DNA of 31,096 bases from a candidate division WOR-3 bacterium (lineage in GTDB: Bacteria > Hydrothermota > Hydrothermia > LBFQ01 > DSFT01), in assembly GCA_965649115.1 (NCBI GenBank), contig CBFGJN010000017.1, positions 1 to 31,096 on the forward strand. Direction: 5' to 3'. Position 1 is the stretch's first letter, and every line of letters begins with the position of its first letter. Made by a program: the position numbers and the translations under genes. Below the pieces are notes generated by a model. The model worked only from the letters and a program-made list of their open reading frames with translations. It made no database searches and had not been told where the DNA came from. Below are positions 2,368 to 27,192 of this stretch, piece after piece.

Positions 2368-2573
2368 TGCTTTGTCCAATAATTATTTCCAAGTAATTGA
2401 TAACCAATGACTTATGAAAATTTCAAATAAACCTTTGACTTAATGGGGGGGTTGATTGGGGGGCAAAGCCCCCTATAGCCTAAAAATGGGGATTTACAAG
2501 CCGAAGGCTTAATATCAGGGTGGGTGGGAAAAATATAGAAAAATAAATAATTTCAGAATTATTAGACACACCA
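2368..2573 (+). mobile_element. Full-length MITE copy A1 (206 bp)
   Basis: Left TIR TGCTTTGTCCAATAATT, right TIR AATTATTAGACACACCA, two internal GC hairpins and GGGTGGGTGGG. No matching TSD on the left. Confidence 0.85.
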
Positions 2574-2592
2574 AACACCAATTAAAATTATC

Positions 2593-2604
2593 CTTTAAAA
2601 TTTT
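2593..2604 (+). promoter_or_regulatory. CTTTAAAATTTT -10-like promoter motif, 7 nt before ATG 2609 (representative of about 12 copies)
   Basis: TAAAAT at 2596-2601 with no Shine-Dalgarno. The same motif precedes the first gene of almost every transcription unit in the window. Confidence 0.7.
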
Positions 2605-2608
2605 CATT

Positions 2609-2914
2609 ATGTTCAAAATTATTGCCATATACAAGAAGCCTGACGATGTTGAAAGTTTTGAGAAGTACTATAAAGAGGTTCATACACCACTTGTAAAAAA
2701 AATTCCTGGTCTTAAAGAACTTAGAATTACAAGAATAAAGGGTGCTCCTTTTGGACAAACTGATATTTACTTAATAGCAGAAATGATATTTGAAACCAAG
2801 GAAGATTATAAAAAAGCATTATCATCAAAAGAAGCAATAGAAGCAGGACAAGATGCTTTAAAATTTTCAAATAATAAAGTTGAAATAATTTTAGGTGAAG
2901 AAAACATTATATGA
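2609..2914 (+). CDS. EthD family protein (dimeric alpha/beta barrel)
   Basis: FEKYYKEVHTPLVKKIPGL...LIAEMIFE pattern, 101 aa. Confidence 0.85.
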   Translation: MFKIIAIYKKPDDVESFEKYYKEVHTPLVKKIPGLKELRITRIKGAPFGQTDIYLIAEMIFETKEDYKKALSSKEAIEAGQDALKFSNNKVEIILGEENII

Positions 2915-3348
2915 ATTTGGAGGAGTTTAAAAAGAAAGAGGAATTATTTAGAGAAGAATTAAAACAATTAAAAAAGGGAAAGGAAATTATAAAAAAAGAT
3001 ATTTTACTTGCTGTTGATTATGAATATAAAGGAAGAGATATTGTTATTGAAATTGTTCAACCTGAATTTACAAGTTTATGTCCATTAACAGGTTTGCCAG
3101 ATTTTGCTCAAATTAAAATAAACTACATTCCTGACCAAAAAATTATAGAATTAAAATCTTTAAAGTACTACTTAGTTCAATATAGAAATGTCGGGATATT
3201 TTATGAGAGTTTAGTTAATAAAATTTTAGAAGATTTAGTGTCAATTTTAGAACCAAAATATATGGAAGTTATATGTGAATTTACACCGAGAGGTGGAATA
3301 AGAACAACAGTTAAAGCGACTTATAAAAAGGAGGTTAAAAATGCTTGA
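2911..3348 (+). CDS. queF: NADPH-dependent 7-cyano-7-deazaguanine reductase (preQ1 synthase, short type)
   Basis: PEFTSLCPLTGLPDFA, ELKSLKYYL and FTPRGGI motifs. Confidence 0.93.
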   Translation: MNLEEFKKKEELFREELKQLKKGKEIIKKDILLAVDYEYKGRDIVIEIVQPEFTSLCPLTGLPDFAQIKINYIPDQKIIELKSLKYYLVQYRNVGIFYESLVNKILEDLVSILEPKYMEVICEFTPRGGIRTTVKATYKKEVKNA

Positions 3349-3793
3349 AAAACTTCTTTCAGAAGAAAGAGTAAAGATAGGGATGAAAGCAAGAAATAAA
3401 GATGAGGCTCTTGAAGAACTTGTTGATCTTCTTAAACTTCCTCAAAACAGCAAAAATATCATACTTGAAGCCCTCAAAAAGAGAGAAGTTATCGGCTCTA
3501 CGGGTATAGGAAGAGGCATTGCTATTCCCCATACAAGAAGTACAATTGTAAATGATGTTTATTTAGCAATTGGTGTTAGCAAAGAGGGCATAGATTTTCA
3601 ATCAGTTGATAACCAACCTGTTCATTTATTCTTTTTACTTGTAGCTCCTCCAAACGATCCCGGAACAACCTACTTAATAGTCCTTGGTAAAATAGCACAA
3701 ATCGCAAAAAAAATAGCAAAAGAAAATATAGACTATCTAAGTATTGAAGATCCAAAAGAACTAATAAAGCTTATATTATCTTTGGAAGGTTAA
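3341..3793 (+). CDS. PTS EIIA (Ntr/fructose-type) domain protein
   Basis: REVIGSTGIGRGIAIPH with the phospho-His; SD AGGAGG upstream. Confidence 0.9.
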   Translation: MLEKLLSEERVKIGMKARNKDEALEELVDLLKLPQNSKNIILEALKKREVIGSTGIGRGIAIPHTRSTIVNDVYLAIGVSKEGIDFQSVDNQPVHLFFLLVAPPNDPGTTYLIVLGKIAQIAKKIAKENIDYLSIEDPKELIKLILSLEG

Positions 3794-3796
3794 AAT

Positions 3797-4132
3797 ATGA
3801 AAAGTTTAACTGAAAAGCTATTAGTTCTTCAGGATATTGAAATAAAACTAAAAGAAATAAGAAGTGAAGACTACAAAAAGGCAGGATTTATAATAGATGA
3901 AGAAAAATTATCAGAAATTGAAAGCTATAAACAGAAACTTGAAAGTGAAATTCCTCCAAATTATTTAAGAAAATTTAAGGCATTATTTAATAAGTATTCA
4001 AGAGCAGTAGCAAGTGTATATGAAAATACCTGTACAAACTGCTTTTCAAAATTACCAACAGGTATTAAAAAGCCTTCTGATAATGAAATTATATTTTGTA
4101 ACGTTTGTGGAATGATATTATACTTTCCATGA
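3797..4132 (+). CDS. C4 zinc-ribbon domain protein (short DUF164-like)
   Basis: CTNC...CNVCGMILY after a short coiled region. Confidence 0.75.
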   Translation: MKSLTEKLLVLQDIEIKLKEIRSEDYKKAGFIIDEEKLSEIESYKQKLESEIPPNYLRKFKALFNKYSRAVASVYENTCTNCFSKLPTGIKKPSDNEIIFCNVCGMILYFP

Positions 4133-5316
4133 ACTTAGATAGCGTTTTAGAAATTATTAAGAAAAATGTTTCTCACTTTTTCCCCGAAGAAGAATTTATT
4201 AAAAAATATAAAGATTTTTTAGATAAAAAAAGAGGACCTCTTAGAGTGAAGTACGGGGCAGATCCTTCAAGACCAGACTTACATCTTGGACATTATGTCA
4301 GTTTGAAAAAATTAAAAGATTTACAAGATTTAGGATTTGAAATTATTGTTGTAATTGGTGATTTTACTGCCTTTATAGGAGATCCAACAGGAAGATCAAA
4401 AACTCGTCCAAAATTAAGTAAGGAAGAAGTTCAAGAAAATGCTAAAACTTATTTAAATCAAATTTCAAAAGTTTTAGATATTCAAAAAATTAAAATAGAA
4501 TTCAATTCAAGTTGGCTTTCAAAATTAACACCTTATGATATTGTAGAACTAACTTCAAAATACACAATATCAAGAATGCTTGAAAGAGAAGACTTTAAAA
4601 ATAGATTTAACGAGAATGAGAGTATTTACATTCATGAAATTTTATACCCTCTTTTCCAAGCTTATGATTCAGTTTTCCTAAAAGCAGATATTGAAATAGG
4701 TGGAGAAGATCAATTATTTAATTTTACTTTAACAAGAGAAATACAAAAAGCTTATGGACAAGAACCTCAGGTTATCATTACAATGCCTCTTTTAATCGGA
4801 ACTGATGGAAAATTAAAAATGTCAAAATCTTATGATAATTACATAGCATTCAACGATGAACCATTTGATATGTTTGGAAAAGTTATGTCAATAAAAGATG
4901 AGCTTATAGAAAGCTATTATAAACTTGTTTTATATCAAGAAATAAATGAAGAATTAAAAACATTTATAAATGAAAATCCAAGGATGGCAAAGGAAAACCT
5001 TGCTTATGAAATTGTAAAATTATTTTATAATGAAGAAATTGCCAAAAAGGTTAGAGAAGAATTTAATAATGTTTTTAAATATAAAGAATTTCCAGAAGAT
5101 GCAATAACTTACGAATTAAGAGAACCTCAGACAATCTGTGATATTTTGCTTAAAGTAAATTTTGTAAGTTCAAAAAACGAATTTAGAAGATTATTAAGTC
5201 AAAGAGCAATAAAGGTAAATAATGAAGTGATAAATGAAAATATCCTAATAAATCAAACCGCTTTCGTTAAAGTTGGAAAACATAAATTTTTGAAAATTTT
5301 AAAACATGACAATTAG
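4129..5316 (+). CDS. tyrS: Tyrosine--tRNA ligase
   Basis: GADPSRPDLHLGH, KMSKS and C-terminal S4 domain. Start moved to ATG 4129, which overlaps the upstream stop (ATGA). Confidence 0.96.
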   Translation: MNLDSVLEIIKKNVSHFFPEEEFIKKYKDFLDKKRGPLRVKYGADPSRPDLHLGHYVSLKKLKDLQDLGFEIIVVIGDFTAFIGDPTGRSKTRPKLSKEEVQENAKTYLNQISKVLDIQKIKIEFNSSWLSKLTPYDIVELTSKYTISRMLEREDFKNRFNENESIYIHEILYPLFQAYDSVFLKADIEIGGEDQLFNFTLTREIQKAYGQEPQVIITMPLLIGTDGKLKMSKSYDNYIAFNDEPFDMFGKVMSIKDELIESYYKLVLYQEINEELKTFINENPRMAKENLAYEIVKLFYNEEIAKKVREEFNNVFKYKEFPEDAITYELREPQTICDILLKVNFVSSKNEFRRLLSQRAIKVNNEVINENILINQTAFVKVGKHKFLKILKHDN

Positions 5317-5611
5317 GGAATTTCAGGAAATTATTAAGAAAACTTATTATGATAGAGATAAAGAAAAAGGAATAAAAAGTGTGTTTATTTGGACAGTAGA
5401 AGAAATTGGTGAGCTTGCAAAAGCTATAAATAGAAAAAGTTTAGAAGATATAGAACTTGAATTATCAGATGTTATTGCTTGGATTTTTAGTATTGCTAAT
5501 TTATTAAATATAGATGTTGAAAAAATTCTTAAAAGATATGAGAGAGGATGTCCAAAATGTTTAAATATTCCTTGCTCTTGTAAAAAGGAGGTTAATTTTG
5601 AAGGAGCTTAA
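5306..5611 (+). CDS. MazG-like nucleotide pyrophosphohydrolase
   Basis: EEIGELAKA...ELSDV motif and C-terminal CPKC...PCSC. Confidence 0.85.
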   Translation: MTIREFQEIIKKTYYDRDKEKGIKSVFIWTVEEIGELAKAINRKSLEDIELELSDVIAWIFSIANLLNIDVEKILKRYERGCPKCLNIPCSCKKEVNFEGA

Positions 5612-6113
5612 TTATAGAGTGAATGAAAATATAAGGTCAAAGGAAGTTCAAGTAATAGGTCCTGATGGAAAGAATCTTGGTGTTATGAGAACATACGATG
5701 CCATACAACTTGCTAAAAGCATGGGTCTTGATTTAGTAGAAGTTTCTCCCAATAGCAATCCACCTGTCGCAAAAATTATGGATTATGGTAAATTTATTTA
5801 TGAACAAAAGAAGAAATTGAAAGAAATGAAAAAACATCAAAAAGCAATAGAAGTCAAAGAATTACAATTATCTCCAACAATTGACAAGCATGATTTACAA
5901 GTGAAAATAAAAAAAGCAAAAGAATTTTTAGAAGATGGAAATAAAGTAAAATTCAGATTGATATTTAAGGGAAGGCAAATTGTTCATCCTGAGATTGCAA
6001 AAAATGTTTTACAATCAATCATAGATGAACTTAATGAAATAGCAGAAGTTGAACAAGCACCCAAAGATGAAGGCAGATTTATGATTATGGTTTTAAGACC
6101 AAAGAAGAAATGA
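5598..6113 (+). CDS. infC: Translation initiation factor IF-3
   Basis: RVNENIR, LDLVEVSPNSNPPVAKIMDYGK and FKGRQ. TTG start after AAGGAGG, with an in-frame ATT at 5595. Confidence 0.97.
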   Translation: MKELNYRVNENIRSKEVQVIGPDGKNLGVMRTYDAIQLAKSMGLDLVEVSPNSNPPVAKIMDYGKFIYEQKKKLKEMKKHQKAIEVKELQLSPTIDKHDLQVKIKKAKEFLEDGNKVKFRLIFKGRQIVHPEIAKNVLQSIIDELNEIAEVEQAPKDEGRFMIMVLRPKKK

Positions 6114-6760
6114 AAAAAGCTCTTGTCCTTTTAAGTGGAGGTATAGATTCTATTACACTTGCTTATTATGTGAAAAAAATTCTTAATAGAGAATTATTTA
6201 CTATTAGTTTTATTTATGGCCAAAGACATAAAAAGGAATTAGAATTTGCAAAATATCATGCAAATTTATTAAATGTTATAGAACATAAAATTGTTGATAT
6301 TTCATTTTTAAAAGAATTAAAAAGCTCTGCTTTAATAAATAAAAATTTAGATATTCCTAAATGGGAAGAAGCTCAAAAGGAAATGCCAATAACTTATGTT
6401 CCATTTAGAAACTTGATTTTTCTTTCAATAGCTCTTTCATATGCGGAAGATAATAGTCTTGATGAAGTTTATTATGCTGCACAAAGACAAGATTATATTG
6501 GTTATTGGGATTGTAGAGAAGACTTTGTTAATGCTTTAAACAAAATAACTGAATTAAATCCTAAAACAAAAATTAAAGTTTTAGCACCATTTATTAATTT
6601 AAGAAAAAGTGAAATTATAAAAATTGGATTAGAGCTTGGTGTTGACTATAATAAGACTTGGAGTTGCTATAAAGGGGAGGAAGAACCTTGTGGAATTTGT
6701 CCAAGTTGTGTTGATAGAAAAAGAGCTTTTGAGGAGATAGGAATATATGATATTAAATGA
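6110..6760 (+). CDS. queC: 7-cyano-7-deazaguanine synthase
   Basis: SGGIDS, YGQRH, TYVPFRN, DCR and TWSCY...CGICPSC. Confidence 0.96.
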   Translation: MKKALVLLSGGIDSITLAYYVKKILNRELFTISFIYGQRHKKELEFAKYHANLLNVIEHKIVDISFLKELKSSALINKNLDIPKWEEAQKEMPITYVPFRNLIFLSIALSYAEDNSLDEVYYAAQRQDYIGYWDCREDFVNALNKITELNPKTKIKVLAPFINLRKSEIIKIGLELGVDYNKTWSCYKGEEEPCGICPSCVDRKRAFEEIGIYDIK

Positions 6761-7721
6761 AATTCAAAAAGCTATAATAAGTTCATCTTCATTGAGAATA
6801 AAAACGGAAATTGGATTTATTGAAATTTATAAGGGAGAAATTCTAAATGCTGAAAAAATTAATGTGGAATATGGATTAAACGCATTAATTGATATTATTA
6901 AAAATTCAATTAATTTTCAGATTGAGATATTAGAAGAACCGCCAATAACTACAATTACAGAGGGTTGGATGGAGATAAAAAAACTATTATTTGAAAATGA
7001 ATTTATGCTCTTTAAAAATTTGAAATTAAATGAAAATGAAATTATGAAATTTAGGGAATGGTTAAAATTTTTTCAATTTAATGGATTTGTGATAAATAAA
7101 GAATTACTTGATGTTTTCCTAAATGGTAATTTAGGTTATTCAAAAGGGCTATTGAAAGAAAATGTCCCATTTAATGTTTATGAAATTAATGAGAAAATTA
7201 TAAGAATTTTTTTAAAGTCCATTGGAAATTTAATTGAAGAAGAAATGTCAAAAATTTCAGAAGTCAGAAAGCAATTTGCTATTGAAGGAAAAAGTGGAAT
7301 TATATTAAGTAATGAAAGAATTGAAGTTTTTGAAAATGGTATTAGAGTTTTAAACTTAAATGAAAATTTATATATAAATAAAATTTTATTTGGGTTTGAA
7401 AGTGAAGAAATGAAAATTAGCGAAACACCATTTTTAACTGACAAGGATTTAAAAGTTTTAAGTTATATTCTTGAAAACAGCTTAAAATTATTGTCTCAAA
7501 AAGCGGGAAATGAATTTGTCCAAAAAGCAATTGAAAAACATAAACCTGATGTTAATAATCCCCAAAGTATTATAAACTGTATAAAAGAAGTTATGGAAAA
7601 AGCAAAATTAGTTGGAGGAACAGGCTGGCTTAAAAAGAATATGGATAAAATTAGTGATGGTGTTAAGGAAATTCAAAATGAAGAATTAAAAAAACTCCTA
7701 AATGACCTTTTTAAGGTATGA
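6747..7721 (+). CDS. Hypothetical protein
   Basis: 324-aa ORF overlapping both neighbours; no recognised motif. Confidence 0.7.
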   Translation: MILNEIQKAIISSSSLRIKTEIGFIEIYKGEILNAEKINVEYGLNALIDIIKNSINFQIEILEEPPITTITEGWMEIKKLLFENEFMLFKNLKLNENEIMKFREWLKFFQFNGFVINKELLDVFLNGNLGYSKGLLKENVPFNVYEINEKIIRIFLKSIGNLIEEEMSKISEVRKQFAIEGKSGIILSNERIEVFENGIRVLNLNENLYINKILFGFESEEMKISETPFLTDKDLKVLSYILENSLKLLSQKAGNEFVQKAIEKHKPDVNNPQSIINCIKEVMEKAKLVGGTGWLKKNMDKISDGVKEIQNEELKKLLNDLFKV

Positions 7722-8542
7722 ATAGAGTTGCTAAAATAACATTTTTAAATGATAATAAATTTTGGTTTAAAGAACTTGAATTTAAAAGCTTCTTTGAAAT
7801 TGATAGTGAAAAATTATTTATTCCTTTCTTTTATTATAATAAATCTCAAATCATTTCATCAGTTTTAAGTTTTGCCTTGAAAAACTATAAAAAGCATCAA
7901 ATAGCATTTTTTGATTTTCAAAAATTTGAAATTGTTTTAAATTTTGAGTATTTATTAAAATTTTTCAAGGAAAGAATTTGTAATGGAGATGAAAGTTTTA
8001 TTATTATAATATCTCCTGAATTTTTTGATAAATATGATGCTAACTTAAAAATTTATAGATTTTTAAATAGTGGAAAGTTGAAAATTTTTCCAATTGATAA
8101 TTTTAAGTCGTTTTACGAAACTAAAATTAAATTCAACTTAAATAAATTCATTTTAAGCTTAATGCTACTTTACGAGATAAGAGAAAAAATATCATTTTTT
8201 AATACAATTTCTTATATTCTTGAAAATGTCTCAAAACCTTTCAATTTCAGACAAGCAGTTATTGATTTAAATATCAGATTTGAAACATTAAAAAATTTTA
8301 TTGATTATCTTGAAAAGGCATTCTTAATAAAAGTTCTAGAAGAAGAAGATAGTCCAAGAGCAACAAGAACAATAATTTTTAATGATTGGAGAGTTTATAG
8401 TTATTTATTGAATTATTCAAGAAGAGAGTTAATTCTAAATGATATTCATAAAGCAGCAATTTTAAGTTATGAATTTTTAAAAGCTACTTTGGAAAATAAA
8501 ACTATAAAAATTGATAATAATTTAAATCCCATTTTAGTTTAA
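7718..8542 (+). CDS. Degenerate AAA_14/DUF4143-like protein with winged helix
   Basis: ENVSKPFNF...ETLKNFIDYLEKAFLI...RTIIFND resembles that family; no Walker A visible. Confidence 0.55.
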   Translation: MNRVAKITFLNDNKFWFKELEFKSFFEIDSEKLFIPFFYYNKSQIISSVLSFALKNYKKHQIAFFDFQKFEIVLNFEYLLKFFKERICNGDESFIIIISPEFFDKYDANLKIYRFLNSGKLKIFPIDNFKSFYETKIKFNLNKFILSLMLLYEIREKISFFNTISYILENVSKPFNFRQAVIDLNIRFETLKNFIDYLEKAFLIKVLEEEDSPRATRTIIFNDWRVYSYLLNYSRRELILNDIHKAAILSYEFLKATLENKTIKIDNNLNPILV

Positions 8543-8556
8543 ATAAGTCATTGATA

Positions 8557-8834
8557 TTGTTTATCCAATAGATGGCGTTAAGCCCTTGATAATCAAAGAC
8601 TTATTAAAAATTTATTAGAATGTTTTAAATAATGAAGGAACTCAAAGGGGGGAGTAGAGCTCCAAAGGCAAAAGAACGCTTTTGGGATTATTAAACACAC
8701 TTTTATTAGGGGGTTTAATTGGGGGACAGAACCTCCCAAAGCAAAAAACGGGAATTTATAAGCCAAAGGCTTATTTTGAGGGTGGGTGGGAAAAGATAGA
8801 AAAATAAATAGTTTTAAAACTATTAGACACACCA
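8557..8834 (+). mobile_element. Two decayed MITE copies (B1 ~8557-8700, B2 ~8701-8834)
   Basis: TIR-like TTGTTTATCCAATA at 8557, remnant right end gattattaaacacac, then hairpin taagccaaaggctta, GGGTGGGTGGG and right end TATTAGACACACCA. Confidence 0.7.
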
Positions 8835-8843
8835 ATTTTAAAA

Positions 8844-9049
8844 TGCTTTGCCCAATAGTTATTGTTAAGTCTTTGAATATCAAGGAGTTATAAAATTTTT
8901 ATGGAAATTATTTATTTTGTGGGAGAATTTAATGGGGGAATATGCCCCTCAATGCCGAAATATGGGTATTTTAAAGGCTAAGCTTTATATTTAGGGTGGG
9001 TGGGAAAAGTATAGAAATAATTATATTTTTAGAATTACTAGACACAGCA
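8844..9049 (+). mobile_element. Full-length MITE copy B3 (206 bp)
   Basis: TGCTTTGCCCAATAGTT...AATTACTAGACACAGCA, flanked by ATTTTAAAA and ATTTAGAAT (6/9 match). Confidence 0.85.
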
Positions 9050-10147
9050 ATTTAGAATAATTTCTATAAATTTTTTTCTTATAATATCAGGGTGAAAATT
9101 TTCAATAGCAAATTTCCTTGCATTTTCAGAAATTTTTTCTCTTAAACTTTTATCTAAAAGGAGAAGTTTAATATAATAATATAGCATTTCTTTATCACCA
9201 GGATTTATTAAAATTCCATTTTCTAAGTGATTAATTATATCCTTATTTGCTCCAACAGGTGTTGTTATAACTGCTAAACCACTAACCATAGCTTCCAAAA
9301 CTGCCATAGAAAAACCTTCTGAATAACTTGGAAGAACAAAAATATCACAAGTTTCATAAATTTTCAATTTATCATAACCGAATGCTCTTTGAATGTACTT
9401 TACTCTTGGATGATTTATTTGAAAAAATGGTTCTATATTTAATTTTTCGCCTGTTATTTGGTTATAGAATATATTCGTTTCTTTTTCCATTCTTTCACCA
9501 AGAAATATAAATTCAACTTCCTTAAATTCATTTAAAATTTTTACAGCAACATTCAATAAATCATTATAACCTTTTGCATATGTTAATAAACCCACAAATA
9601 AAATTTTATTACCTTCCCTCCTTGGATTTATATTTAGAAACATTTCTTCAAAAGCATTAGGCAAAACCTCTAATTTATTATCATAATTTTTAAACTGCTC
9701 CTTTAAACTTTCACTTTGAACAATAATTTTACAACTTCTATTTAAGCAAAATTTTATTAATCTCTTAAAAATTTTAGAATTTAATTTTTCATAGAAAATT
9801 TTAAAATGACCTCCACGCATATGAACTATAATTTTTTTATTTAAAAGAATAGCGGGAAATAAAATTAAAAAATCCCTAATCCATCCAAACTTTGTAGCAG
9901 TTATACAATGATAAACAAAATGAGGATTGAAAAAAATTAGCTGAAAAATATATTTAAGATAAATTAATAAAAATTTAATAAATGCTGAAATTGAAAATCT
10001 CCCTCTTTTTAACTTATTTTTTCTAACACTAACATTAATTATTTTTACTTTTAGATTATCAAATGGTTTAGAAAATAAAATTTTGCTTGAAATTTCTGGT
10101 CCAGAATAAGGTGGAGGAAGTGGAACAAGAGCTAATAACTTCTTCAA
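9038..10147 (-). CDS. GT4 family glycosyltransferase
   Basis: ILFVGLL...KG and DIFVLPSYSEGFSMAVLEAM. The last 3 codons and the stop come from the MITE TIR. Confidence 0.92.
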   Translation of the reverse strand: MKKLLALVPLPPPYSGPEISSKILFSKPFDNLKVKIINVSVRKNKLKRGRFSISAFIKFLLIYLKYIFQLIFFNPHFVYHCITATKFGWIRDFLILFPAILLNKKIIVHMRGGHFKIFYEKLNSKIFKRLIKFCLNRSCKIIVQSESLKEQFKNYDNKLEVLPNAFEEMFLNINPRREGNKILFVGLLTYAKGYNDLLNVAVKILNEFKEVEFIFLGERMEKETNIFYNQITGEKLNIEPFFQINHPRVKYIQRAFGYDKLKIYETCDIFVLPSYSEGFSMAVLEAMVSGLAVITTPVGANKDIINHLENGILINPGDKEMLYYYIKLLLLDKSLREKISENARKFAIENFHPDIIRKKFIEIILNCCV

Positions 10148-11022: not shown

Positions 11023-11025
11023 TAG

Positions 11026-11097: not shown

Positions 11098-11125
11098 AAG
11101 TTATAAATTTTAAAGGATAAAGTAA

Positions 11126-11345
11126 GGAAATATAGAAAAATAGATATTTTTAATTACTAGACAAAACATCACTTTTTTGCTTTGTCCAGTAAATAATGTT
11201 AAGTAATTTGATTTATCGGGGGTTTTAAAGGGGGGCAAAGCCCCCCGAAGCCGAAATATGGGTATTTTAAAGCCAAAGGCTTAAATATAGGGTGGGTGGG
11301 GAAAATATAGAAATAATCATATTTTTAGAATTACTAGACAAAACA
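11126..11345 (+). mobile_element. MITE array C: right-end remnant (11126-11168) plus internally deleted copy (11178-11345)
   Basis: Both copies end ACTAGACAAAACA, followed by TCACTTTTT (11169-11177) and TCATTTTTT (11346-11354). Confidence 0.85.
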
Positions 11346-11372
11346 TCATTTTTTTGCTTTAAACTTTTAAGT

Positions 11373-12158: not shown

Positions 12159-12187
12159 ATAAAGCTTAAAACTTTAAAATTTTAACT

Positions 12188-16647: not shown

Positions 16648-17167
16648 ATTAAGTTACTGAAATTCTTGATTTTTCGCGGAGAATTATTGGAGGCGAAGCC
16701 CCCGAGGCATAAAAATGGGGTATTTATAAGGCTCCGCCTTATTTTCAGGGTGGGTGGGCAAGACATAAAAAAATAAATAGTTTCAGAATTACTGGACACA
16801 GCAACCCACCACTGCTTTGTCTAGTAAATAGTGTTAAGTAATTGATTATCAACGATTTATAAAAATTTTAAGAAAATTATTAATTTTACGGGGGTTTTAA
16901 GGAGGACAGAGCTTTAAAAGCGAAGCCTTGAATACAGGGTTAGTGGGCAAAATATAGAAAAATAAATGATTTTAGAATTACTAGACACAGCAACGCACTA
17001 CTGCTTTGTCCAATAATTATTGTTAAGCGATTGATAATCAATAATTTATAAAATTTTTAAGGAAATTGTTGATTTATTGGGGGGATTATTAGGGGGGCTC
17101 TGCCTTAAAGCCGAAGGCTTTTGAAAAATAAATAATTCCAGAATTATTGGACAAGGCAACGCACTAC
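16648..17167 (+). mobile_element. MITE array D: three tandem copies (~16648-16803, 16813-16992, 17002-17158), each followed by a 9-bp duplication
   Basis: Spacers ACCCACCAC (16804-16812), ACGCACTAC (16993-17001) and ACGCACTAC (17159-17167). Confidence 0.92.
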
Positions 17168-17193
17168 TAAATTTCAGCTTTAAAATTTTAATT

Positions 17194-18704: not shown

Positions 18705-19167
18705 GTTTTCCCCTCCTTTTTATGAAGCTATCAATTATAAGTAAAAAAATAGCTATTGTTATAACACTATCTGCTAAATTGAAAACAAACCATCTTAAAT
18801 TTTCATTTATACCAATATCTATAAAGTCAACAACAAATCCTCTAAAAATCCTATCAAACAAATTTCCAAATGCTCCTCCTATAATTAAACAGTAAGCAAA
18901 AAAACTTAAATAACTTATTTCTTTAATTGCAAGATATATAACAAATATCGTTATTAAAACTGCTAATAAAGTATAAGGAAAATTTTCACCAAAATTCAAA
19001 CCAAACGCAATACCTGGATTATAAACAAATGTAATTCTTAAATAATTACCCAATATCTCAACAGGCTTGTGAATTGGAAAGTTTTTTTCCACAAAAAATT
19101 TTGTAATTTGGTCTAAAATTAAAATAATTGTAGGAATAAAAATCAAATAAAAGACTTTATTTTTCAT
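18700..19167 (-). CDS. lspA: Lipoprotein signal peptidase II
   Basis: DQITK, NPGIAFG, GGAFGNLFDR, VVDFI and FNLAD. ATG 19167 overlaps the upstream stop. Confidence 0.96.
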   Translation of the reverse strand: MKNKVFYLIFIPTIILILDQITKFFVEKNFPIHKPVEILGNYLRITFVYNPGIAFGLNFGENFPYTLLAVLITIFVIYLAIKEISYLSFFAYCLIIGGAFGNLFDRIFRGFVVDFIDIGINENLRWFVFNLADSVITIAIFLLIIDSFIKRRGKH

Positions 19168-19859: not shown

Positions 19860-20698
19860 TTAATTATCCTCCTTATTATAAAACCTATATTACCAAGAAG
19901 TATAAACAAAAGAATAATTGTATGAGCTGGAATTTGCGAAACCATAATCAATGAAGCAAGACCTTTCTTCTTTGCTAAGCTTTCATAATCAAAAGCACCT
20001 TTAAGTCCCCCAACAACGCCAACAACTTGTTTTGCTTGATAATACGGAAAATACCCAGGAGCCATAACTGCTGTCACAGAAAAAGCCATTTTAACACCAT
20101 ATCTTGCTTGAACAATCTGAACCCAAAAATCACCAGTTGCACCAGCTTCAAATCCAAACAATAAATCAATATCTTTATAATTCAAAACACCATCATCTCC
20201 TGAAATTTGTTTATAAATAGGATAGCTATCAATTGGTTTTCCATAATAATCATTAGGAAAAACATTTCTAAAATCCTCACTTAAACCAACCATAACACCT
20301 GCAACACCTGGCTTAAATCCAAGAATTAAATAATCTTCACCATATTTTTTATTAAATTTTTTTGCGACTTTTTCAATACCATTTACACCTACTATTAAAC
20401 CTTGAAATTGCCAGTGCGTCATTAAAAGAACTTTTATATTCTTTCTGAATGCTTGTTCAAGAACAACCTCATAGACAGGTTGAAGTTCTGGATAAGCTGA
20501 TGGTCCATAATCTGTTGATATTAGAAGGACATCACCTTCTTTTAAAGATTCTACTGCATTATAGGCATCTATTACCTCTTGTGTAGGTCTTGTAGGAAGG
20601 GAAGGTTTTAGAAAAAGTGGCACAATAATTGAAAAAATAAGAATAGAATATATTATTCTTCTATCTATAAGTGTTAAAAAGTCTAAAATTGCTTTCAT
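19856..20698 (-). CDS. Uncharacterised membrane-anchored protein
   Basis: Terminal TM helices around a soluble alpha/beta domain (DYGPSAYPEL, YGEDY, GLKGAFDYE). Confidence 0.8.
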   Translation of the reverse strand: MKAILDFLTLIDRRIIYSILIFSIIVPLFLKPSLPTRPTQEVIDAYNAVESLKEGDVLLISTDYGPSAYPELQPVYEVVLEQAFRKNIKVLLMTHWQFQGLIVGVNGIEKVAKKFNKKYGEDYLILGFKPGVAGVMVGLSEDFRNVFPNDYYGKPIDSYPIYKQISGDDGVLNYKDIDLLFGFEAGATGDFWVQIVQARYGVKMAFSVTAVMAPGYFPYYQAKQVVGVVGGLKGAFDYESLAKKKGLASLIMVSQIPAHTIILLFILLGNIGFIIRRIIK

Positions 20699-21489
20699 CT
20701 TATATACCCCCTCTCTATACCAAATATAATTCTAAGCGAAAAGGCAATACTTCCAAGTGTTAATCCAAGATTTATAGCCCTCTGTCCAGCATTATTTGGA
20801 TATTGCATAATCCAATCCGAAAACGAAGGGATAAATTGAGAAATAATTTTTGAGAATTCTGGAAAAAATAATGAAATTCCTAAAAACAAAAATAACAAAC
20901 CAACAAAAAGTCTTAAAATTGAACTTAAACCAGTGTACCTTGTCGAAATATATAGGAAGTAAATACCTGTTAGAATTGAAAATGCGAAGAAAAATGGAAT
21001 AAATATAATTCCTCCAAATGGAACTCTACCCATCATTACAATTGCTGCTGATAATAAAAGAAGTGTAGATTCTAAATTTCTTGCCCTAAATGCTCTATAA
21101 GCAGCAGAAGCTATAAAGAATGCAAGAAGTGAAAACATTGTAGCATCAAGTGGTAAATATATATTTTGAAATAACCATAAATAGGTTGAATTCTGAACAA
21201 AAGGACCGCCGTACTTGTACCAAGCCCAAATTCCCCAAATTAAGGCAACAAAAAAAGAAATAATTAAAATTAAACTATAAATTCTATCTTTATCACCTCT
21301 CCTAATTTTTCTCCAATGATATAAAATTAAACTATCTATACCAAGTAAAAGAGCAAAACCAGAAATAATAATGTACCATCTTGTAGTGAGCTGTTCAATT
21401 TGCGTAAAAGGTTCTCTTGGAATAAAGAATAAAGCCATAATTAAAATGCCACTTATAAATGTTACAATAACAGGAATTTGAGTTTGCAT
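20695..21489 (-). CDS. Uncharacterised polytopic membrane protein
   Basis: TMFSLLAFFIASAAYRAFRAR, QRAI and LRIIFGIER. Confidence 0.8.
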   Translation of the reverse strand: MQTQIPVIVTFISGILIMALFFIPREPFTQIEQLTTRWYIIISGFALLLGIDSLILYHWRKIRRGDKDRIYSLILIISFFVALIWGIWAWYKYGGPFVQNSTYLWLFQNIYLPLDATMFSLLAFFIASAAYRAFRARNLESTLLLLSAAIVMMGRVPFGGIIFIPFFFAFSILTGIYFLYISTRYTGLSSILRLFVGLLFLFLGISLFFPEFSKIISQFIPSFSDWIMQYPNNAGQRAINLGLTLGSIAFSLRIIFGIERGYIR

Positions 21490-21491
21490 AA

Positions 21492-22607
21492 CTAACCTCC
21501 AACTTTAAACATATTTACATATAACTCTGCTACATTTTTAAGAATTCCAAACTCAGAAAGCGTTAGTAGTAAAGAACCTATCAAAATAATAACAATAATT
21601 ACAATTTTAGCAATATCTTCCGCTTTTATTGTTCCTATTTCCGATGGATTTTTGCTTAAATAAGCAGAAGCTGCATACAATTCTTCGCCAATTAATGTAT
21701 AATCACAAGAAACAACAAAGAACGGTAGTTGAGTGACAGCAGTAGTTCCTGCTATGTTTATAGCACCTACATTATAAGAAGTCTCTGCCATTAGCAAACT
21801 TTCAGCATAAAAATATCCTTGATAAAATGCTGCACCTGGTTTTTCTCTTATTACAATTCCGTTAAATCCTGCTGTAAAACCAAATTGTTCAGTTGTTAAA
21901 AACATTATATTTTCTTCTCTATATAAATCAGGTCTTCCAGCTTCTGTAAAGCCTTCTTTAACTGCTTCCCTTGAAGCAAGCATTATTAATGGGTCATTAT
22001 TTGGAACAATCAAATCTATACCATATCCAGCAACCTTTTTAGCAACATATTTTAAAATAGCTATACCAGCTATAATTGAAGGGTCACTTAATGTTCCAAT
22101 TCCAGTTGTGTAAATTATTGGCCTACCCATTTCCGTTGCTCTACCAACTGCATCATCAATAGCTTCAAGACCAGCAATTTTTCTAATGTAAGGAACTTTA
22201 CCCATTCTTGAAGAGTAATAATAATAAAAGAATAATGCTGAAAAAATAACTAAGAATATAAGAACTGGCAATTTCTTAGTATCAAACCAAGGCTTATCAT
22301 TTTTATCTTCAATAGAAATTTTAATCGGTTTTGACCAATCCGTATCAGTATAACTTGTATCATCAACATATGTTCTTACCAAATAACTATAATTAATATT
22401 TGGTTTTACAAGTGTATCTAAAAATTTTGTTTCCTTAGTTTCACCAATAAGTAAAGGATTCTCTTTATTATGCTTTTCATCTGTTCTATAAATTTGATAT
22501 TTTTTGATTTCAATTTGGGGAGCTTTCCAAGTTAGAATAACTTTATTTCCTTCAATTTGAACATTTAGACTTTCTGCTGGAAGAGGTAATAAGAAAAATA
22601 CAATCAT
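21492..22607 (-). CDS. Fibronectin-III plus DUF6754-like membrane protein
   Basis: N-terminal FN3 (LTWKAP...YSYLV), then IRKIAGLEAIDDAVGRATEMGRP and DYTLIGEELYAASAYLS. Confidence 0.8.
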   Translation of the reverse strand: MIVFFLLPLPAESLNVQIEGNKVILTWKAPQIEIKKYQIYRTDEKHNKENPLLIGETKETKFLDTLVKPNINYSYLVRTYVDDTSYTDTDWSKPIKISIEDKNDKPWFDTKKLPVLIFLVIFSALFFYYYYSSRMGKVPYIRKIAGLEAIDDAVGRATEMGRPIIYTTGIGTLSDPSIIAGIAILKYVAKKVAGYGIDLIVPNNDPLIMLASREAVKEGFTEAGRPDLYREENIMFLTTEQFGFTAGFNGIVIREKPGAAFYQGYFYAESLLMAETSYNVGAINIAGTTAVTQLPFFVVSCDYTLIGEELYAASAYLSKNPSEIGTIKAEDIAKIVIIVIILIGSLLLTLSEFGILKNVAELYVNMFKVGG

Positions 22608-22613
22608 CAGCTC

Positions 22614-23327
22614 CTACAAGTTTAAAGTATAGATAACTTTACCTTCAAGTTCCAAGACATTTAATTCATTTTCATCAAGAATACCATAAGTATAGTGTTC
22701 TAACCAGTCACCAATACAAGCAATTTTCTTATTATTTTTAATTGAATAAGTTGGAGAATGTAAATGACCAATAATTAAAACATCACCTTCAATTCTATCA
22801 AAATAATTCCATAACCAATTTGGAATCTCTTTTACATAATTATTATGGGCTTTTCTACTAACTTTTGAAATGAATTTCGCGATTTTTATACCAATATCAG
22901 GATGAATTAATTTAAATACATTTACAAGAAAGCCATTTTTTAAAATATCTCTCGTTTTAATTCTAAATTTTAAATCATCTCCATGGGCAAAAATAATTTT
23001 TCTATTATTTAACTCAATTTCATATTTTCCAATAATTTTTCTAATGTTTAAATTCTCTATGAAATTACCAATCCAAAGGTCATGATTTCCGGCTATGTAA
23101 ATTGTTTCAATATCTTTTGAGATATTATAAATTTCAAAAAGAACCTTAAAATAATGTGAAAAAATTACACTATTATATTCAAACCAAAAATCAAATAAAT
23201 CACCAATTATTATAAATTTGTCAGCATTTTTTCTAACCTCTTCTAATAGTTTTTTAAAATTCCTAAATTTAATTTCTTCATCATCAGAAAAACCAAAGTG
23301 TGCATCAGAAAAAAGGTAAATTTTCAA
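22614..23327 (-). CDS. lpxH: UDP-2,3-diacylglucosamine diphosphatase-like metallophosphoesterase
   Basis: SDAHFG, GDLFDFW, GNHD, HGD, GHLH and GDW. Confidence 0.82.
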   Translation of the reverse strand: MKIYLFSDAHFGFSDDEEIKFRNFKKLLEEVRKNADKFIIIGDLFDFWFEYNSVIFSHYFKVLFEIYNISKDIETIYIAGNHDLWIGNFIENLNIRKIIGKYEIELNNRKIIFAHGDDLKFRIKTRDILKNGFLVNVFKLIHPDIGIKIAKFISKVSRKAHNNYVKEIPNWLWNYFDRIEGDVLIIGHLHSPTYSIKNNKKIACIGDWLEHYTYGILDENELNVLELEGKVIYTLNL

Positions 23328-23368
23328 AAGATTTAAATTTTAAAGTTATGCTTTAAAATTTTAAAACT

Positions 23369-24259
23369 ATGGCAGTAGAAACAAAACTTAAACCAACCGA
23401 CTTTGATAGCCACTTTCCAACATGGTGTCCAGGATGTGGAGACTTTTCAGTTCTTCTTGGCCTTAAAAAAGCACTTGCTGAACTTGGAAAAAGACCTCAT
23501 GAAGTTGTAGTTGTATCAGGAATTGGTTGTTCTGGGAAGCTTTCAGATTATATTAAAGCCTATGGATTTCATGGCATTCACGGAAGAGTTATGCCAGTAG
23601 CACAGGCAATTAAACTTGTAAATCCAAAACTAACTGTAATTGGTGTTGGAGGAGATGGAGATGGTTTTGCAATAGGAGGAAATCACTTTATACATGCTTG
23701 TAGAAGAAACATAGATATTACTTATATTGTTATGGATAATCAAATATATGGACTTACAAAAGGTCAAGCTTCACCTACAAGTCTAGTAGGACATATTACA
23801 GTATCAACACCTTATGGTGTTAAAGACAGCCCTATTGACCCAATAATGATAGCACTTGCTAATGGTGCGACATTTGTAGCAAGAACATTCTCAGGTGATG
23901 GTGCCATTTTACCTAAAATTTTCATGGAAGGTATAAAACATAAGGGTTTTTCATTTATTGACGATATATCACCTTGTGTTACATTTAATAAATTTAATAC
24001 TTATGAGTGGTATAGAGAGCATATTGAATATGTTGATGAATCAAAAGGAGGAAAAAGGGACTATAATGTTCATGATAGACTTGAAGCAATAGATAAAGTT
24101 AAGGAAGTTAAAAGTAGAGGTAAAATTCCTGTTGGTATTATATTTATAGATAATGAAACGGAAAGTGGAGAAAATCATTATTTGAAAAATGGAGCACCAA
24201 TAGAATCAGATTTAACAATTAGGGAGGATTATCTTGAATTATTGAAGGAATTTGAATGA
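23369..24259 (+). CDS. 2-oxoacid:ferredoxin oxidoreductase beta subunit
   Basis: WCPGCG, SGIGCS, HGR, GGDGD, DNQIYGLTKGQ and SPCVTFN. Confidence 0.95.
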   Translation: MAVETKLKPTDFDSHFPTWCPGCGDFSVLLGLKKALAELGKRPHEVVVVSGIGCSGKLSDYIKAYGFHGIHGRVMPVAQAIKLVNPKLTVIGVGGDGDGFAIGGNHFIHACRRNIDITYIVMDNQIYGLTKGQASPTSLVGHITVSTPYGVKDSPIDPIMIALANGATFVARTFSGDGAILPKIFMEGIKHKGFSFIDDISPCVTFNKFNTYEWYREHIEYVDESKGGKRDYNVHDRLEAIDKVKEVKSRGKIPVGIIFIDNETESGENHYLKNGAPIESDLTIREDYLELLKEFE

Positions 24260-25653
24260 AACAAATTTTAATAGCAGATAAAATTTTAATTGGGAAAGAA
24301 TTAGTTGAAAATAAAGCAGTTATAATAGATGAAAACAAAATTATTGATGTAATTGATGCCTTTGAAAGCGAAATAACTCATATTCCCGTTAAAACATTTC
24401 CAAAAAATTCAATTTTGATGCCTGCATTTATTGATACACATACTCATTTAGCAAGTTATGGTTTAAGCCTAACAAAACCAAATTTAAATAATTTCAAAAC
24501 TAAAAAAGATGTTATTGACTATTCAAGAGAATATATAAGAAATTTTGATAAGGATATTTATATATTTTTAGGATATGACGAAAGCAAATGGATTGATGAA
24601 AATGAATTAACAAAAGAAGATTTGGATAAAATATCAAAGGAGAAACCAATTATTTTTAGAAGGATTTGTGGTCATAAAGCAGTTTTAAATACAAAAGCAT
24701 TAGAAATAGTGAAAGATATTGAAGGAATTGATTTTAAAACTGGTATTGCTCTTGAATACCTACCTTTAAATATATATGAAATTTTTAAACCTACTATTGA
24801 AGAAATTAAAGAAGGAATTTTAAAAGCACAAGAAATTGCAATTAATTTAGGAATTAAAGGTATTGTTGATATTACAAATGTTGAAAGTTTTAAAGCATAT
24901 CAAGAATTAAAAAGAGAAGGAAAATTAAAATTAAGGGTTGGAATTGTTTTATATGAAAGATATTTTGAACTAATTAAGAAGTTAAATCTTGAATATAATT
25001 TTGGAGATGACAATTTGAAATTTTTAGGAATTAAGATATTTCTTGATGGTTCGGTTGGTGCTGGAACTGCTGACAAACTATTAAAAACAAATGAAGAATT
25101 AGAAGTTATACTGAAAGATTGTCAAAAGCATAATGTTCAATTATTAGCTCATGCAATTGGTCAAAACGCTATAAATCAATTTATAAATGTTTTTGAAAAA
25201 GTCGTAAATAATAATTATTTAAGACATAGAATTGAACACTTTGAATTTCCTTATTATGAAGACATTAAGAGAGTTTCAAAATTAAATATATATTTATCAA
25301 TGCAACCAAATTTTGTAGCACTGTGGGGAGGTTTTGATAATATGTACGCCAAAAAACTTCCACTTGAAGTTTTAAAGAGATGTAATCCTTATAAAACAAT
25401 TTTTAATGAAGGTATTAATTTGGCATTTGGAAGTGATTGTATGCCTCTTGATCCATTTTTAGGAATTAAAGGAGCAGTAAATCATTTTCTTGAAAATGAA
25501 AGAATTGATTTAAATTTAGCTTTATATTTATATTCAACAGCAGGAGCGCAGTTCCTTTTTATGGAAGATAAAATTGGAAAGATTGAAAGAGGATATTATT
25601 CTGACTTAATTGTCATTGATGAAAAAAATTTAAATTTAATTGAAACTTTTTAA
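24256..25653 (+). CDS. Amidohydrolase_3 (YtcJ-like) metal-dependent hydrolase
   Basis: PAFIDTHTH, KIFLDGS, HAIG, RHRIEH and FGSD. Confidence 0.9.
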   Translation: MKQILIADKILIGKELVENKAVIIDENKIIDVIDAFESEITHIPVKTFPKNSILMPAFIDTHTHLASYGLSLTKPNLNNFKTKKDVIDYSREYIRNFDKDIYIFLGYDESKWIDENELTKEDLDKISKEKPIIFRRICGHKAVLNTKALEIVKDIEGIDFKTGIALEYLPLNIYEIFKPTIEEIKEGILKAQEIAINLGIKGIVDITNVESFKAYQELKREGKLKLRVGIVLYERYFELIKKLNLEYNFGDDNLKFLGIKIFLDGSVGAGTADKLLKTNEELEVILKDCQKHNVQLLAHAIGQNAINQFINVFEKVVNNNYLRHRIEHFEFPYYEDIKRVSKLNIYLSMQPNFVALWGGFDNMYAKKLPLEVLKRCNPYKTIFNEGINLAFGSDCMPLDPFLGIKGAVNHFLENERIDLNLALYLYSTAGAQFLFMEDKIGKIERGYYSDLIVIDEKNLNLIETF

Positions 25654-25984
25654 AGTAATGTTAAATTACTTATTTAATTTGCTTTGATTTAAAGCTCCCC
25701 CAGGCAAAAAATGGGGTATTTATAAGGCTCCACCTTATTTTCAGAATTATTGGACAAGGCACTTTTAATATGCTTTGTCTAATAATTATTGTTAACTTAT
25801 TGATTGTCAATAACTTATAAAAATTTTAAGAAAATTATAGTTTTTATGGGGGGTTTTTAATGGGGGCTTCGCCCCCCATGGCCGAAAAATGGGTATTTAT
25901 AAGGCGAAGCCTTATTCATAGGGTGGGTGGGGAAAATATAGAAAATATATATTTTTAGAATTACTAGACAAAACACTTTTAATA
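25654..25984 (+). mobile_element. MITE array E: decayed copy (~25654-25761) plus full copy (25771-25975) with perfect 9-bp TSD
   Basis: CTTTTAATA at 25762-25770 and 25976-25984; TIRs TGCTTTGTCTAATAATT and AATTACTAGACAAAACA. Confidence 0.92.
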
Positions 25985-26010
25985 AAACTTTTTACTTTAA
26001 AATTTTCATT

Positions 26011-27192
26011 ATGCGTTCTGCGGTAATCGTAAGTGCTAAAAGAACAGCAGTAGGAAAAGCTCCAAGAGGAACATTGAAGGACACAAGACCAGAATATTTA
26101 TTAGCAGAAGTTATAAAAGCAATTTTAAATGAAACGAATTTAGATCCTAACTTAATAGAAGATTTAACAGTGGGGTGTGCTTTTCCCGAAGCCTACCAAG
26201 GTATGAATATGGCAAGAACAGTTGTTTATAGAGCAGGGCTTCCCACTTCCATTCCAGCAGTTACAGTTAATAGATATTGTGCTTCTTCAATTCAATCAAT
26301 AGCTCAAACAGCTCATAGAATTATGGTTGGAGAAATTGATGTGGCAATAGCAGGTGGAGCTGAAAGCATGAGTTTAGTTCCTATGCCGGGATATGTTTTT
26401 AGACCAGAACCTTATATTGCTCAAAATTTCCCTGATTATTATTTAAATATGGGTCTTACAGCAGAAAATTTAGTTCCATTATATAACATAAAAAGAGAAG
26501 AAGTAGATCAATATGCTTATTTATCTCATAAAAGAGGAGCAGAAGCAGTTTTAAGTGGAAAATTTAAAGAGCAAATAGTTCCTATTAAAGTAAAAGTTAG
26601 ATTAGAAGATGAAGATAGTAATAGTCAATTGGTTGAGAAAATTTTTGATCAAGATGAATGTATTAGACCTGATACAACACTTGAAGGACTATTAAATTTA
26701 AAACCCTACTTTAAAGTAGATGGAACAGTTACCGCTGGAAATGCTTCACAAAGAAGTGATGGAGCGGGAGCAGTTCTTATTATGAGTGAAGAAAAGGCAA
26801 AAGAACTTGGACTTAAACCATTAGCAAGATTTATAACCTATCAAGTTTCAGCAGTTCCAGCAGAAATTATGGGAATAGCACCAGCTTACGCAATTCCAAA
26901 ATCACTTAAAAAAGCTAACTTAACATTAGAAGACATCAAACTTATTGAACTAAACGAAGCATTTGCTACACAAATAGTAGCTGTTCTAAGAGAATTAGAA
27001 ATACCATTGGATAAATTAAATGTAAATGGAGGTGCCATTTCACTTGGTCATCCACTTGGAGCAACTGGTTCCATTTTAACAGTTAAACTTATTTACGAAT
27101 TAAGAAAAAGAGGTGGAGGTTATGGAATTGTAAGTGCTTGTGTTGGAGGAGGAATGGGAGCAAGTATGATTTTGGAGGTATATGGAAGTTAA
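26011..27192 (+). CDS. Acetyl-CoA C-acyltransferase (thiolase)
   Basis: NRYCASS, NEAFA, GHPLGATG and CVGGGMG. Confidence 0.96.
   Translation: MRSAVIVSAKRTAVGKAPRGTLKDTRPEYLLAEVIKAILNETNLDPNLIEDLTVGCAFPEAYQGMNMARTVVYRAGLPTSIPAVTVNRYCASSIQSIAQTAHRIMVGEIDVAIAGGAESMSLVPMPGYVFRPEPYIAQNFPDYYLNMGLTAENLVPLYNIKREEVDQYAYLSHKRGAEAVLSGKFKEQIVPIKVKVRLEDEDSNSQLVEKIFDQDECIRPDTTLEGLLNLKPYFKVDGTVTAGNASQRSDGAGAVLIMSEEKAKELGLKPLARFITYQVSAVPAEIMGIAPAYAIPKSLKKANLTLEDIKLIELNEAFATQIVAVLRELEIPLDKLNVNGGAISLGHPLGATGSILTVKLIYELRKRGGGYGIVSACVGGGMGASMILEVYGS

Follow-up and report, generated by a model that had tools for sequence, protein, structure and literature searches.

Insertion at a short distance upstream of promoters has been described in bacteria for TnGBS, ISLre2 and ISKra4, elements with Mutator-like DDE transposases that enter in one orientation 15-17 bp upstream of sigma-A promoters, this orientation being ascribed to the dissymmetry of their ends (Guerillot et al. 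2014, PMC3942029). Here, we have analysed the 31,096 nucleotides of contig CBFGJN010000017.1 from a candidate division WOR-3 bacterium (this whole stretch is called the window), in which copies of a miniature inverted-repeat transposable element (MITE) are placed ahead of several gene starts. The MITE and an insertion sequence (IS) similar to IS903 very probably target a promoter motif of the host in a fixed register and a fixed orientation. As with TnGBS, ISLre2 and ISKra4, the insertions spare genes, keep a constant short spacing to the promoter downstream and always turn the same inverted repeat toward it. A sequence-only reading of the window had described such a safe-harbour strategy as not known to its author for IS5/IS903-type elements; the strategy as such does have a precedent, as these three elements do likewise with an unrelated transposase (PMC3942029). 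The present system differs from them in its IS5/IS903-like transposase (IS5 is the best-matching family, and no Mutator-type model was present among the 8 matching families listed), in its reference point, an 11-bp element of the -10 box only, located 19 nt from the element end, whereas the TnGBS group stands 15-17 bp upstream of a -35 box, and in the huge amplification of the MITE (762 matches, with 162 of 394 strict promoters filled).

The Correia elements of Neisseria are also short, non-coding, bounded by inverted ends and target-site duplications (TSDs), intergenic, present in high copy number and often near promoters. They target the dinucleotide TA and bring promoter parts of their own, whereas the position found here is exact to the base relative to a host promoter lying outside the element. 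Ty3 in yeast and TRE in Dictyostelium display safe-harbour insertion at a fixed distance upstream of genes transcribed by RNA polymerase III, through contacts of the integrase with TFIIIB/C; a fixed distance upstream of transcription units, taken from the transcription machinery or from its signal, is common to both situations, whereas a bacterial DDE element of the cut-and-paste type is involved here and not a eukaryotic retroelement. Like IS903, the element is about 1.05 kb long, encodes one DDE_Tnp_1 transposase (about 300 amino acids) and generates a 9-bp TSD. Its ends are of the GCTTTGT...AATAA type, presumably like those of IS903, and the title of a 1998 paper by Hu and Derbyshire names an orientation preference. 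The preferred target of IS903 is the symmetric sequence WTTYA-N9-TRAAW adjoining the duplication (as given in Table 1 of PMC2577343), whereas no symmetric target is seen here and what determines the site lies on one side only, at 10-21 nt from the duplication. A literature search retrieved no report of promoter homing for IS5-family elements or MITEs and none for WOR-3; the WOR-3 genome paper PMC12542636 contains no word that starts with 'transpos' and none of the terms MITE, promoter and leaderless.

Register and orientation of the elements relative to host promoters

The window is the entire contig C17 of the genome bin G000 (99 contigs, 1,848,020 bp, 27.6% GC, 94.5% complete), which was compared with a sister species (G002), with three further congeners (G001, G003 and G004) and with a public bin (L001). 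The MITE consensus is 205 nt long, non-coding and terminated by 17-bp inverted ends. The full-length copy at 2368..2573 (+), whose ends were read directly, was the reference for nhmmer (535 matches), and a profile made from 90 full copies recovered 762 matches representing 98,603 bp, or 5.3% of G000. Among the 185 full copies with readable flanks, 80 are bordered by a perfect 9/9 TSD and 12 by an 8/9 one, to be compared with 1.25 perfect duplications with shuffled partners; TSD registers of 7, 8, 10 and 11 bp fit far worse than 9 bp. The only open reading frames (ORFs) of at least 80 aa (table 11) touching the copies of the window are the TTG/GTG frames 8593-8883 (-), which overlaps part of array B, and 11292-12158 (+), which leaves array C to enter the gene with its ATG at 11373; the element does not seem to encode either of them. 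Truncation points inside copies show no pile-up that would indicate self-targeting, and a consensus scan of positions 2200-17300 gave no terminator-like site, so that a role of the MITE hairpins as terminators or insulators was rejected. Some copies also carry, at about positions 45-60 of the consensus and on the reverse strand, the sequence CCTTAAAATTT, which has one mismatch to the promoter motif, points out of the left end and could serve the gene upstream as an outward promoter.

At three unrelated sites of the window the same layout is observed: element, 9-mer, 10 variable nt, the host promoter motif CTTTAAAATTTT, 4 nt and ATG. We call offset the distance from the last base of the element to the first base of the motif, an offset of 20 leaving 19 nt between them. 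In array A, the copy 2368..2573 is followed by the target 9-mer AACACCAAT (2574..2582, +), by the motif at offset 20 (2593..2604, +) and by the ATG of an EthD-domain gene at 2609; this promoter-proximal 9-mer has no intact left counterpart because an older truncated copy (about 2309-2367) adjoins that side. Array D (16659..17158, +) contains three copies, 16659-16803 (partial), 16813-16992 and 17002-17158, separated by the spacers ACCCACCAC and ACGCACTAC, and its flank (17159..17189, +) comprises the TSD ACGCACTAC, 10 nt and the motif at 17178-17189, ahead of the ATG at 17194. Array E (25680..25975, +) consists of an internally deleted copy (25680-25761), the spacer CTTTTAATA and a full copy (25771-25975), with the TSD CTTTTAATA, 10 nt and the motif at 25995-26006 in its flank (25976..26006, +), before the ATG of a thiolase at 26011. 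Both ACGCACTAC and CTTTTAATA flank their elements on the two sides. The sequence-only reading had noticed the fixed distance of the ends 2573, 17158 and 25975 to motif and ATG in spite of different 9-bp targets; its coordinates are exact to the base, and the three ends are indeed followed by three different 9-mers.

The window contains three other ends. Array B (8702..9049, +; repeat families D2-D5), located between convergent genes, has no motif in register, as already remarked in that reading, and its right end at 9049 is one of 76 such ends genome-wide. Array C (11127..11345, +) comprises a right-end fragment, the spacer TCACTTTTT and a copy ending at 11345, after which come TCATTTTTT and then TGCTTTAAACTTT; in this flank (11346..11367, +) the TSD TCATTTTTT is followed by TG and by the motif variant CTTTAAACTTT at offset 12, the ATG being at 11373. 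Finally, the segment 30971..31096 (+), which runs into the contig end, had been taken for an intragenic end of the MITE type in the correct register. The register is confirmed (GTTAAAAATTT at offset 20, with 2 mismatches), whereas the end is that of a full autonomous IS903-like IS, namely the end beside the 3' end of the transposase gene (right inverted repeat, IRR). An intragenic position is not supported; the end lies upstream of the promoter 30924-35 of ORF 30375-30920 (-). This promoter is part of the palindromic motif CTTTAAAATTTTAAAG (30920..30935), followed on the minus strand by the GTG of the ORF. The perfect 20-nt palindrome CACTTTAAAATTTTAAAGTG (window 30916-30939) presents the promoter motif on both strands, and such back-to-back divergent pairs of motifs are common in the congener G001 too.

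The motif itself belongs to the host. The window holds 9 occurrences of the 12-mer CTTTAAAATTTT where 0.51 would be expected, a number reached by none of 100 shuffles, and the exact 11-mer CTTTAAAATTT, which contains TAAAAT, occurs 573 times in G000 against about 19 expected from base composition. Outside the MITEs, 438 of 553 motifs stand ahead of an ORF start (ORFs of 50 aa or more), with a gap between motif end and start that peaks at 4-8 nt. The motif also ends 5-18 nt before the mature 5' end of 32 of the 45 tRNA genes, and therefore represents a signal for transcription and not for translation. The gaps at these tRNA genes, among which is the tRNA-Cys gene of the window (11025-11097, -), cluster at 6-8 and 12-14 nt. 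In 232 empty promoters, every position from -45 to -2 carries at most 0.2 bit, and matches to a two-hexamer sigma-70 promoter are at the level of chance (98 vs 100.3), which together indicate a promoter made of a -10 element only. The motif is thus the own promoter signal of the host, with TAAAAT as -10 box, and works without a -35 box. The transcription start would lie about 7 nt after TAAAAT, in which case the transcripts of most first genes would have little or no leader. The claim that insertion leaves promoter and gene intact agrees with these data, as an insertion takes away nothing conserved.

The motif could also be an outward promoter that the MITE brings along or creates, an explanation that we regard as the least probable of all. 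The IS does drive its own transposase gene from such a motif (ATTTAAAATTT, 4 nt before the ATG), and the reverse-strand sequence with one mismatch to the motif, present close to the left end of some MITE copies, goes in the same direction. However, the motif lies outside the duplicated 9-mer, beyond 10 unconserved nt, and 232 of the 394 strict promoters have no element. In the window, empty motifs stand directly ahead of repeat-free gene starts at 12172-12183 (+), 15266-15277 (-) and 23351-23362 (+), and the motif is therefore not a part of the element. It is equally frequent in G001 and G004, which have 225 and 320 motif+ATG sites, respectively, vs 7 and 16 in the reversed control, and where neither the MITE query nor the end-plus-motif pattern gave a match. 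A sister genus has 29 motif+ATG sites, and more distant relatives are at background.

Genome-wide, 468 right ends were mapped with at most 3 mismatches to the end consensus, 461 of which were usable, together with 310 usable left ends; the motif was scored as CTTTAAAATTT with at most one mismatch. Another copy adjoins 129 of the 461 right ends, with a 9-nt spacer in 106 of these 129, and the remaining 332 right ends are terminal. The motif begins at offset 20 in 135 terminal right ends and at offset 19 in 47, with 5 at offset 21 and 2 at offset 18 (189 of 332 for offsets 18-21 combined); 63 ends have it at offsets 10-14, 4 elsewhere up to 45 nt, and 76 have no motif. For the left ends, a motif is present within 70 nt in 29 of 310, without any peak. 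At offsets 19-21 the asymmetry is of 187 right ends vs 5 left ends. Each of the 19 positions that separate element and motif carries 0.0-0.6 bit, and the positions adjoining the TSD carry 0.1-0.4 bit (about 0.1 bit at offsets 10-14); the signal is one-sided and located at offsets 20-30. The distances and orientations are consequently neither broad nor random, and the proposal that the target is chosen by an outside motif or by a protein bound to it is borne out in that the promoter element starts 10 nt beyond the 9-bp TSD.

The shorter spacing of array C had been attributed to a microhomology deletion. Among the 32 promoters with an offset of 11-13, 13 (41%) have TG ahead of the motif, vs 13% of the empty promoters and 19% of those at offsets 19-21 (Fisher p 0.0009); at the exact offset 12, the count is 12 of 19. 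The shorter spacing fits a deletion that joined the TGCTTT of a left end to the CTTT in the motif; this part of the proposal is reinforced, whereas the members of the class without TG are not accounted for and need another cause, such as a second register.

Serial insertion, occupancy and choice of the target

The IS end located at 30971 in the window has 16 copies that are 100% identical, all at contig ends, and 3 of them adjoin other copies. In 11 of the other 13, which are young copies, the motif stands at offset 19-20 (without mismatch in 8 and with one mismatch in 3). Insertion is also serial: the 9-nt spacer is identical to the 9-mer following the next copy in 38 of 76 pairs of neighbouring copies, vs 0.9 expected. 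In the 99 promoter-anchored arrays of at least 2 copies, the proximal copy is full-length in 80 cases and the second in 26, whereas only 4 of 26 third copies are, and the proximal copy has the higher score in bits per nt in 82 of the 99. The proximal copy being the most intact, new copies therefore enter next to the promoter. In two arrays of G000 (C5:23310-23646 and C1:59266-59693) the spacers follow the pattern X-copy-Y-copy-X, which suggests that a two-copy unit moved as one piece by means of its outer ends.

The same spacing is found in the sister species G002, where a pattern search recovered 51 sites vs 0 in the control, the gap from end to motif being 19 nt at 21 sites, 18 nt at 4, 20 nt at 3 and 11-12 nt at 15. 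The thiolase promoter is filled in G000 only and empty in G002 and in L001, and the EthD promoter carries an element in G000 and G002 but none in G001, G003 and G004. The sequence-only reading had proposed a comparison with empty alleles of related genomes; empty promoters do exist in congeners, and no clean pre-insertion site was recovered from the congener alleles in which it was sought. The G002 contig for orf17194 ends 38 nt upstream of the ATG, and the contigs of four public runs, compared with positions 16400-26400, gave joints that are mostly other repeat copies and no clean empty allele. The thiolase is a first gene in G000 (window 26011) and in G002, and internal to an operon in G003 and G004, where it is preceded by a Shine-Dalgarno-like sequence (aagaggagg or agaggggg; loci L146 in G004 and L147 in G003) without the promoter motif.

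In G000, 162 of the 394 strict promoters are filled and 232 are empty. These numbers bear on the hypothesis that insertion is random and that selection alone retains this position and orientation. The would-be target lies inside an open frame of at least 80 codons in 104 of the 232 empty promoters, and insertions into genes would be purged. Yet the 128 other empty promoters are non-coding at the target and still unfilled, filling being not just a matter of tolerance. Any neutral upstream position should moreover be tolerable, whereas 182 of the 332 terminal right ends fall at two adjacent offsets; the re-use of the same 9-mer and the 11 of 13 identical young copies that already follow the rule also speak against selection as the sole cause, which we therefore judge very improbable.

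According to the mechanism that we favour, the DDE transposase would make 9-bp staggered cuts at a site picked relative to the 11-bp promoter element CTTTAAAATTT, the 9-bp target ending 10 nt upstream of it. The transposase would set the spacing, and differences between the two ends would set the orientation, the IRR-type end TGCCTTGTCCAATAATTC, beside the 3' end of the transposase gene, being always directed toward the promoter. If transcripts begin at this distance of about 7 nt from TAAAAT, the TSD would cover about -34 to -26; these promoters having no -35 element, promoter and gene would therefore survive the insertion. Each insertion would re-use the promoter-proximal 9-mer and produce head-to-tail stacks, the newest copy nearest to the promoter. 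Purifying selection would then purge the harmful insertions and decide which promoters stay filled.

We lean slightly toward a transposase that reads the DNA motif itself over one that follows a protein bound to it. Tethering to such a protein (the RNA polymerase holoenzyme, a sigma factor or another one) has a real though smaller chance of being the correct explanation. It is attractive in that protein and tRNA genes alike use the targeted sequence as a working promoter element, and in that P0121, the protein that matches the parent transposase (300 aa, covering 287 of the 289 positions of the IS5 model), has no additional DNA-binding domain. Tethering has also been proposed for TnGBS and ISLre2, which insert 15-17 bp upstream of sigma-A promoters (PMC3942029). 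It fits less well with the copy at 30971, a single case, which is in register with the two-mismatch look-alike GTTAAAAATTT without any gene start directly after it, and with a cut site at about -34 to -26 that would lie beneath the bound polymerase.

Several points weigh against targeting of the motif by the transposase. The label of -35 region given to the target depends on the assumed transcription start. The 76 motif-less terminal right ends (of 332) match the motif about like random genomic positions, 2 of the 13 young IS copies are off target, and deletions between inverted repeat and promoter explain only a part of the ends at offsets 10-14, which number 63 in G000 and account for 15 of the 51 sites in G002. 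Lethal insertions are never visible, so that selection contributes to the observed pattern. The 19 nt upstream of the thiolase motif are unalignable between G000 and the empty allele of G002, in line with the lack of a clean pre-insertion site noted above. Finally, the interior of the IS is unassembled in G000, and P0121 is tied to it only by 58 N-terminal and 13 C-terminal residues.

The parent element and TnpB-related relatives

The MITEs are non-autonomous deletion derivatives of an IS903-like IS of the IS5 family of about 1.05 kb. Their left end is 92-100% identical to the 5' end of the IS over about 21-26 nt, and their right end and the 3' end of the IS both read TGCCTTGTCCAATAATTC. In addition to the IS end of the window, two more identical repeats terminate many contigs of G000. 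One of them, with 10 copies, begins with a left-type end, followed by ATTTAAAATTT 4 nt before an ATG; 58 residues of the ORF are visible on contig C93. At this 5' end (C93:111-236, -), the transposase gene is driven by a motif of the host type, the same promoter code as that which is targeted. The 58 N-terminal residues used as query detected one protein, P0121, from other public metagenome contigs (300 aa, 92% identical, PF01609 and PF13737). P0121 scores 245 bits with the NCBIfam model NF033579 of the IS5 family (cut-off 140) and covers 287 of its 289 positions, in agreement with the IS5/IS903 type assigned by the sequence-only reading. The opposite strand of window 30971-31096 encodes its last 13 residues at a distance of 82 nt from the end; the frame terminates there in IMNSFYSYSNLAD and a stop. 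From the two ends and P0121, the autonomous parent would be an IS903-like element of the IS5 family with a length of 1052 bp (67 + 903 + 82 nt). With the transposase gene directed toward the host promoter, the promoter-proximal end of the element is the 3' (IRR-type) one; the right end of the MITE is of this type.

No match to PF01609 was found in G000 and G001-G004, which does not imply absence as metagenome-assembled genomes lose the interiors of multi-copy IS. The search of G000 with P0121 gave N-terminal fragments only, and an exact-pattern scan of metagenome contigs with the IS end gave 0 matches. The composite C11:31359-32784 of G000 (1426 bp, MITE-derived ends, perfect TSD TATATCTTT, one end at offset 20 from a motif) was rejected as autonomous parent, as its MITE ends enclose an unrelated 246-aa ORF and no transposase. 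Another candidate was an element of G002 (contig C87, L037:1354-2886) of 1533 bp, with the same 17-bp ends, the perfect TSD AGCCTTAAA and one end at offset 20 from the motif, whose sole ORF is related to TnpB (TIGR01766, 58 bits). It was dropped as parent for G000 when the contig-end repeats gave both ends of a DDE transposase gene.

This element of G002 has relatives at 59 loci of hot-spring metagenomes (most of them 45-53% identical), 46 of which have both ends of the TGCCTTGTCGCAATC type; a perfect 9-bp TSD is present in 18 of these 46. The elements of this group with IS903-type ends measure 1.5-1.7 kb (loci L037, L044-L047 and L052-L123). The best Foldseek matches of the TnpB-like protein are Cas12f (E 3.7e-8; mean predicted local distance difference test, pLDDT, of the model 68.7), and its RuvC triad D189, E252 and D319 is invariant in 29 sequences, which have no zinc ribbon. 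At 30 of 44 unique junctions on the 5' side of the ORF,.TTAT[AT] stands directly before the TSD, whereas the other side has no motif. Canonical TnpB elements (IS200/IS605) are devoid of inverted ends and of target duplication (PMC7290912 and PMC3119063), in contrast to the 17-bp inverted ends and perfect 9-bp TSDs observed here. No prokaryotic TnpB element with inverted ends and duplications was found in a literature search.

One could suppose that the TnpB/Cas12f-like protein aims or moves the elements, perhaps by measuring from a motif comparable to a target-adjacent motif (TAM). The register of the G002 element, the Cas12f fold with its invariant triad, and the distant relatives that keep ends, 9-bp TSDs and a one-sided TTTAT beside the target would be in favour of such a role. 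However, G000, where the rule is clearest, has a DDE-type IS and no TnpB-like match was found there, two of the three independent Hydrothermia-type elements (L118 and L050) lie away from the promoter motif, and 9-bp staggered TSDs with IS903-like ends are the product of a DDE enzyme. The protein has thus very little chance of being responsible, and we read the TnpB-like elements as nuclease-carrying passengers moved by IS903-type transposases, movement by their own means being less probable.

A broader scenario, which we consider a long shot, would unite both groups of elements. One-sided reading of the target on the IRR side would be old in the IS903-type clade and would have been retuned here to the 11-bp promoter element, two helical turns from the cut, while sister lineages would have swapped the DDE gene for that of a TnpB/Cas12f-like nuclease with a preserved RuvC triad, with TTTAT on the 5' side of the ORF as TAM and an outward guide allowing the nuclease to re-cut vacated sites. 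If this is true, a guide transcribed outward across the far end (the duplicated 9-mer and its flank) would match the empty site, and these elements would be the prokaryotic counterpart of the Fanzor genes that ride in DDE transposons.

Other features of the window and implications

The genes of the window are ordinary bacterial genes, among others those of the EthD-domain protein, QueF, PTS EIIA, TyrRS, the thiolase and MiaA. At the thiolase locus, the single locus from which the taxon was derived, the closest public relative is a bin of 'Candidatus Hydrothermia' (WOR-3), with 97% protein identity; the 16S rRNA was looked for in the bin G000 and not found. Seven tandem units of 21 nt (window 11509-11737; repeat family D1), within the ORF that starts at 11373, encode a 7-residue protein repeat.

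Promoter homing would thus have arisen a second time among bacterial DDE transposases, in this case with a standard-size enzyme of the IS5 family that has no extra domain, and the way in which such an enzyme measures 19 nt from a motif is now a tractable question. With 162 of 394 strict promoters filled and a share of 5.3% in a 1.85-Mb genome, a mobile element can thus spread while doing little damage to genes. The abundance of the repeat is also the reason why about half of the contig ends break in it, an inverted end being present within 200 nt of 97 of the 198 contig ends of G000. The possible applications include a tool for thermophiles, as a small transposase would provide base-precise, oriented and motif-directed insertion. 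For the host, an uncultured hot-spring lineage, the elements mark the promoters, and the annotation of promoters and operon starts is obtained nearly for free; the 11-bp signal, made of a -10 element only and located 4-8 nt before the starts, implies mostly leaderless messages.

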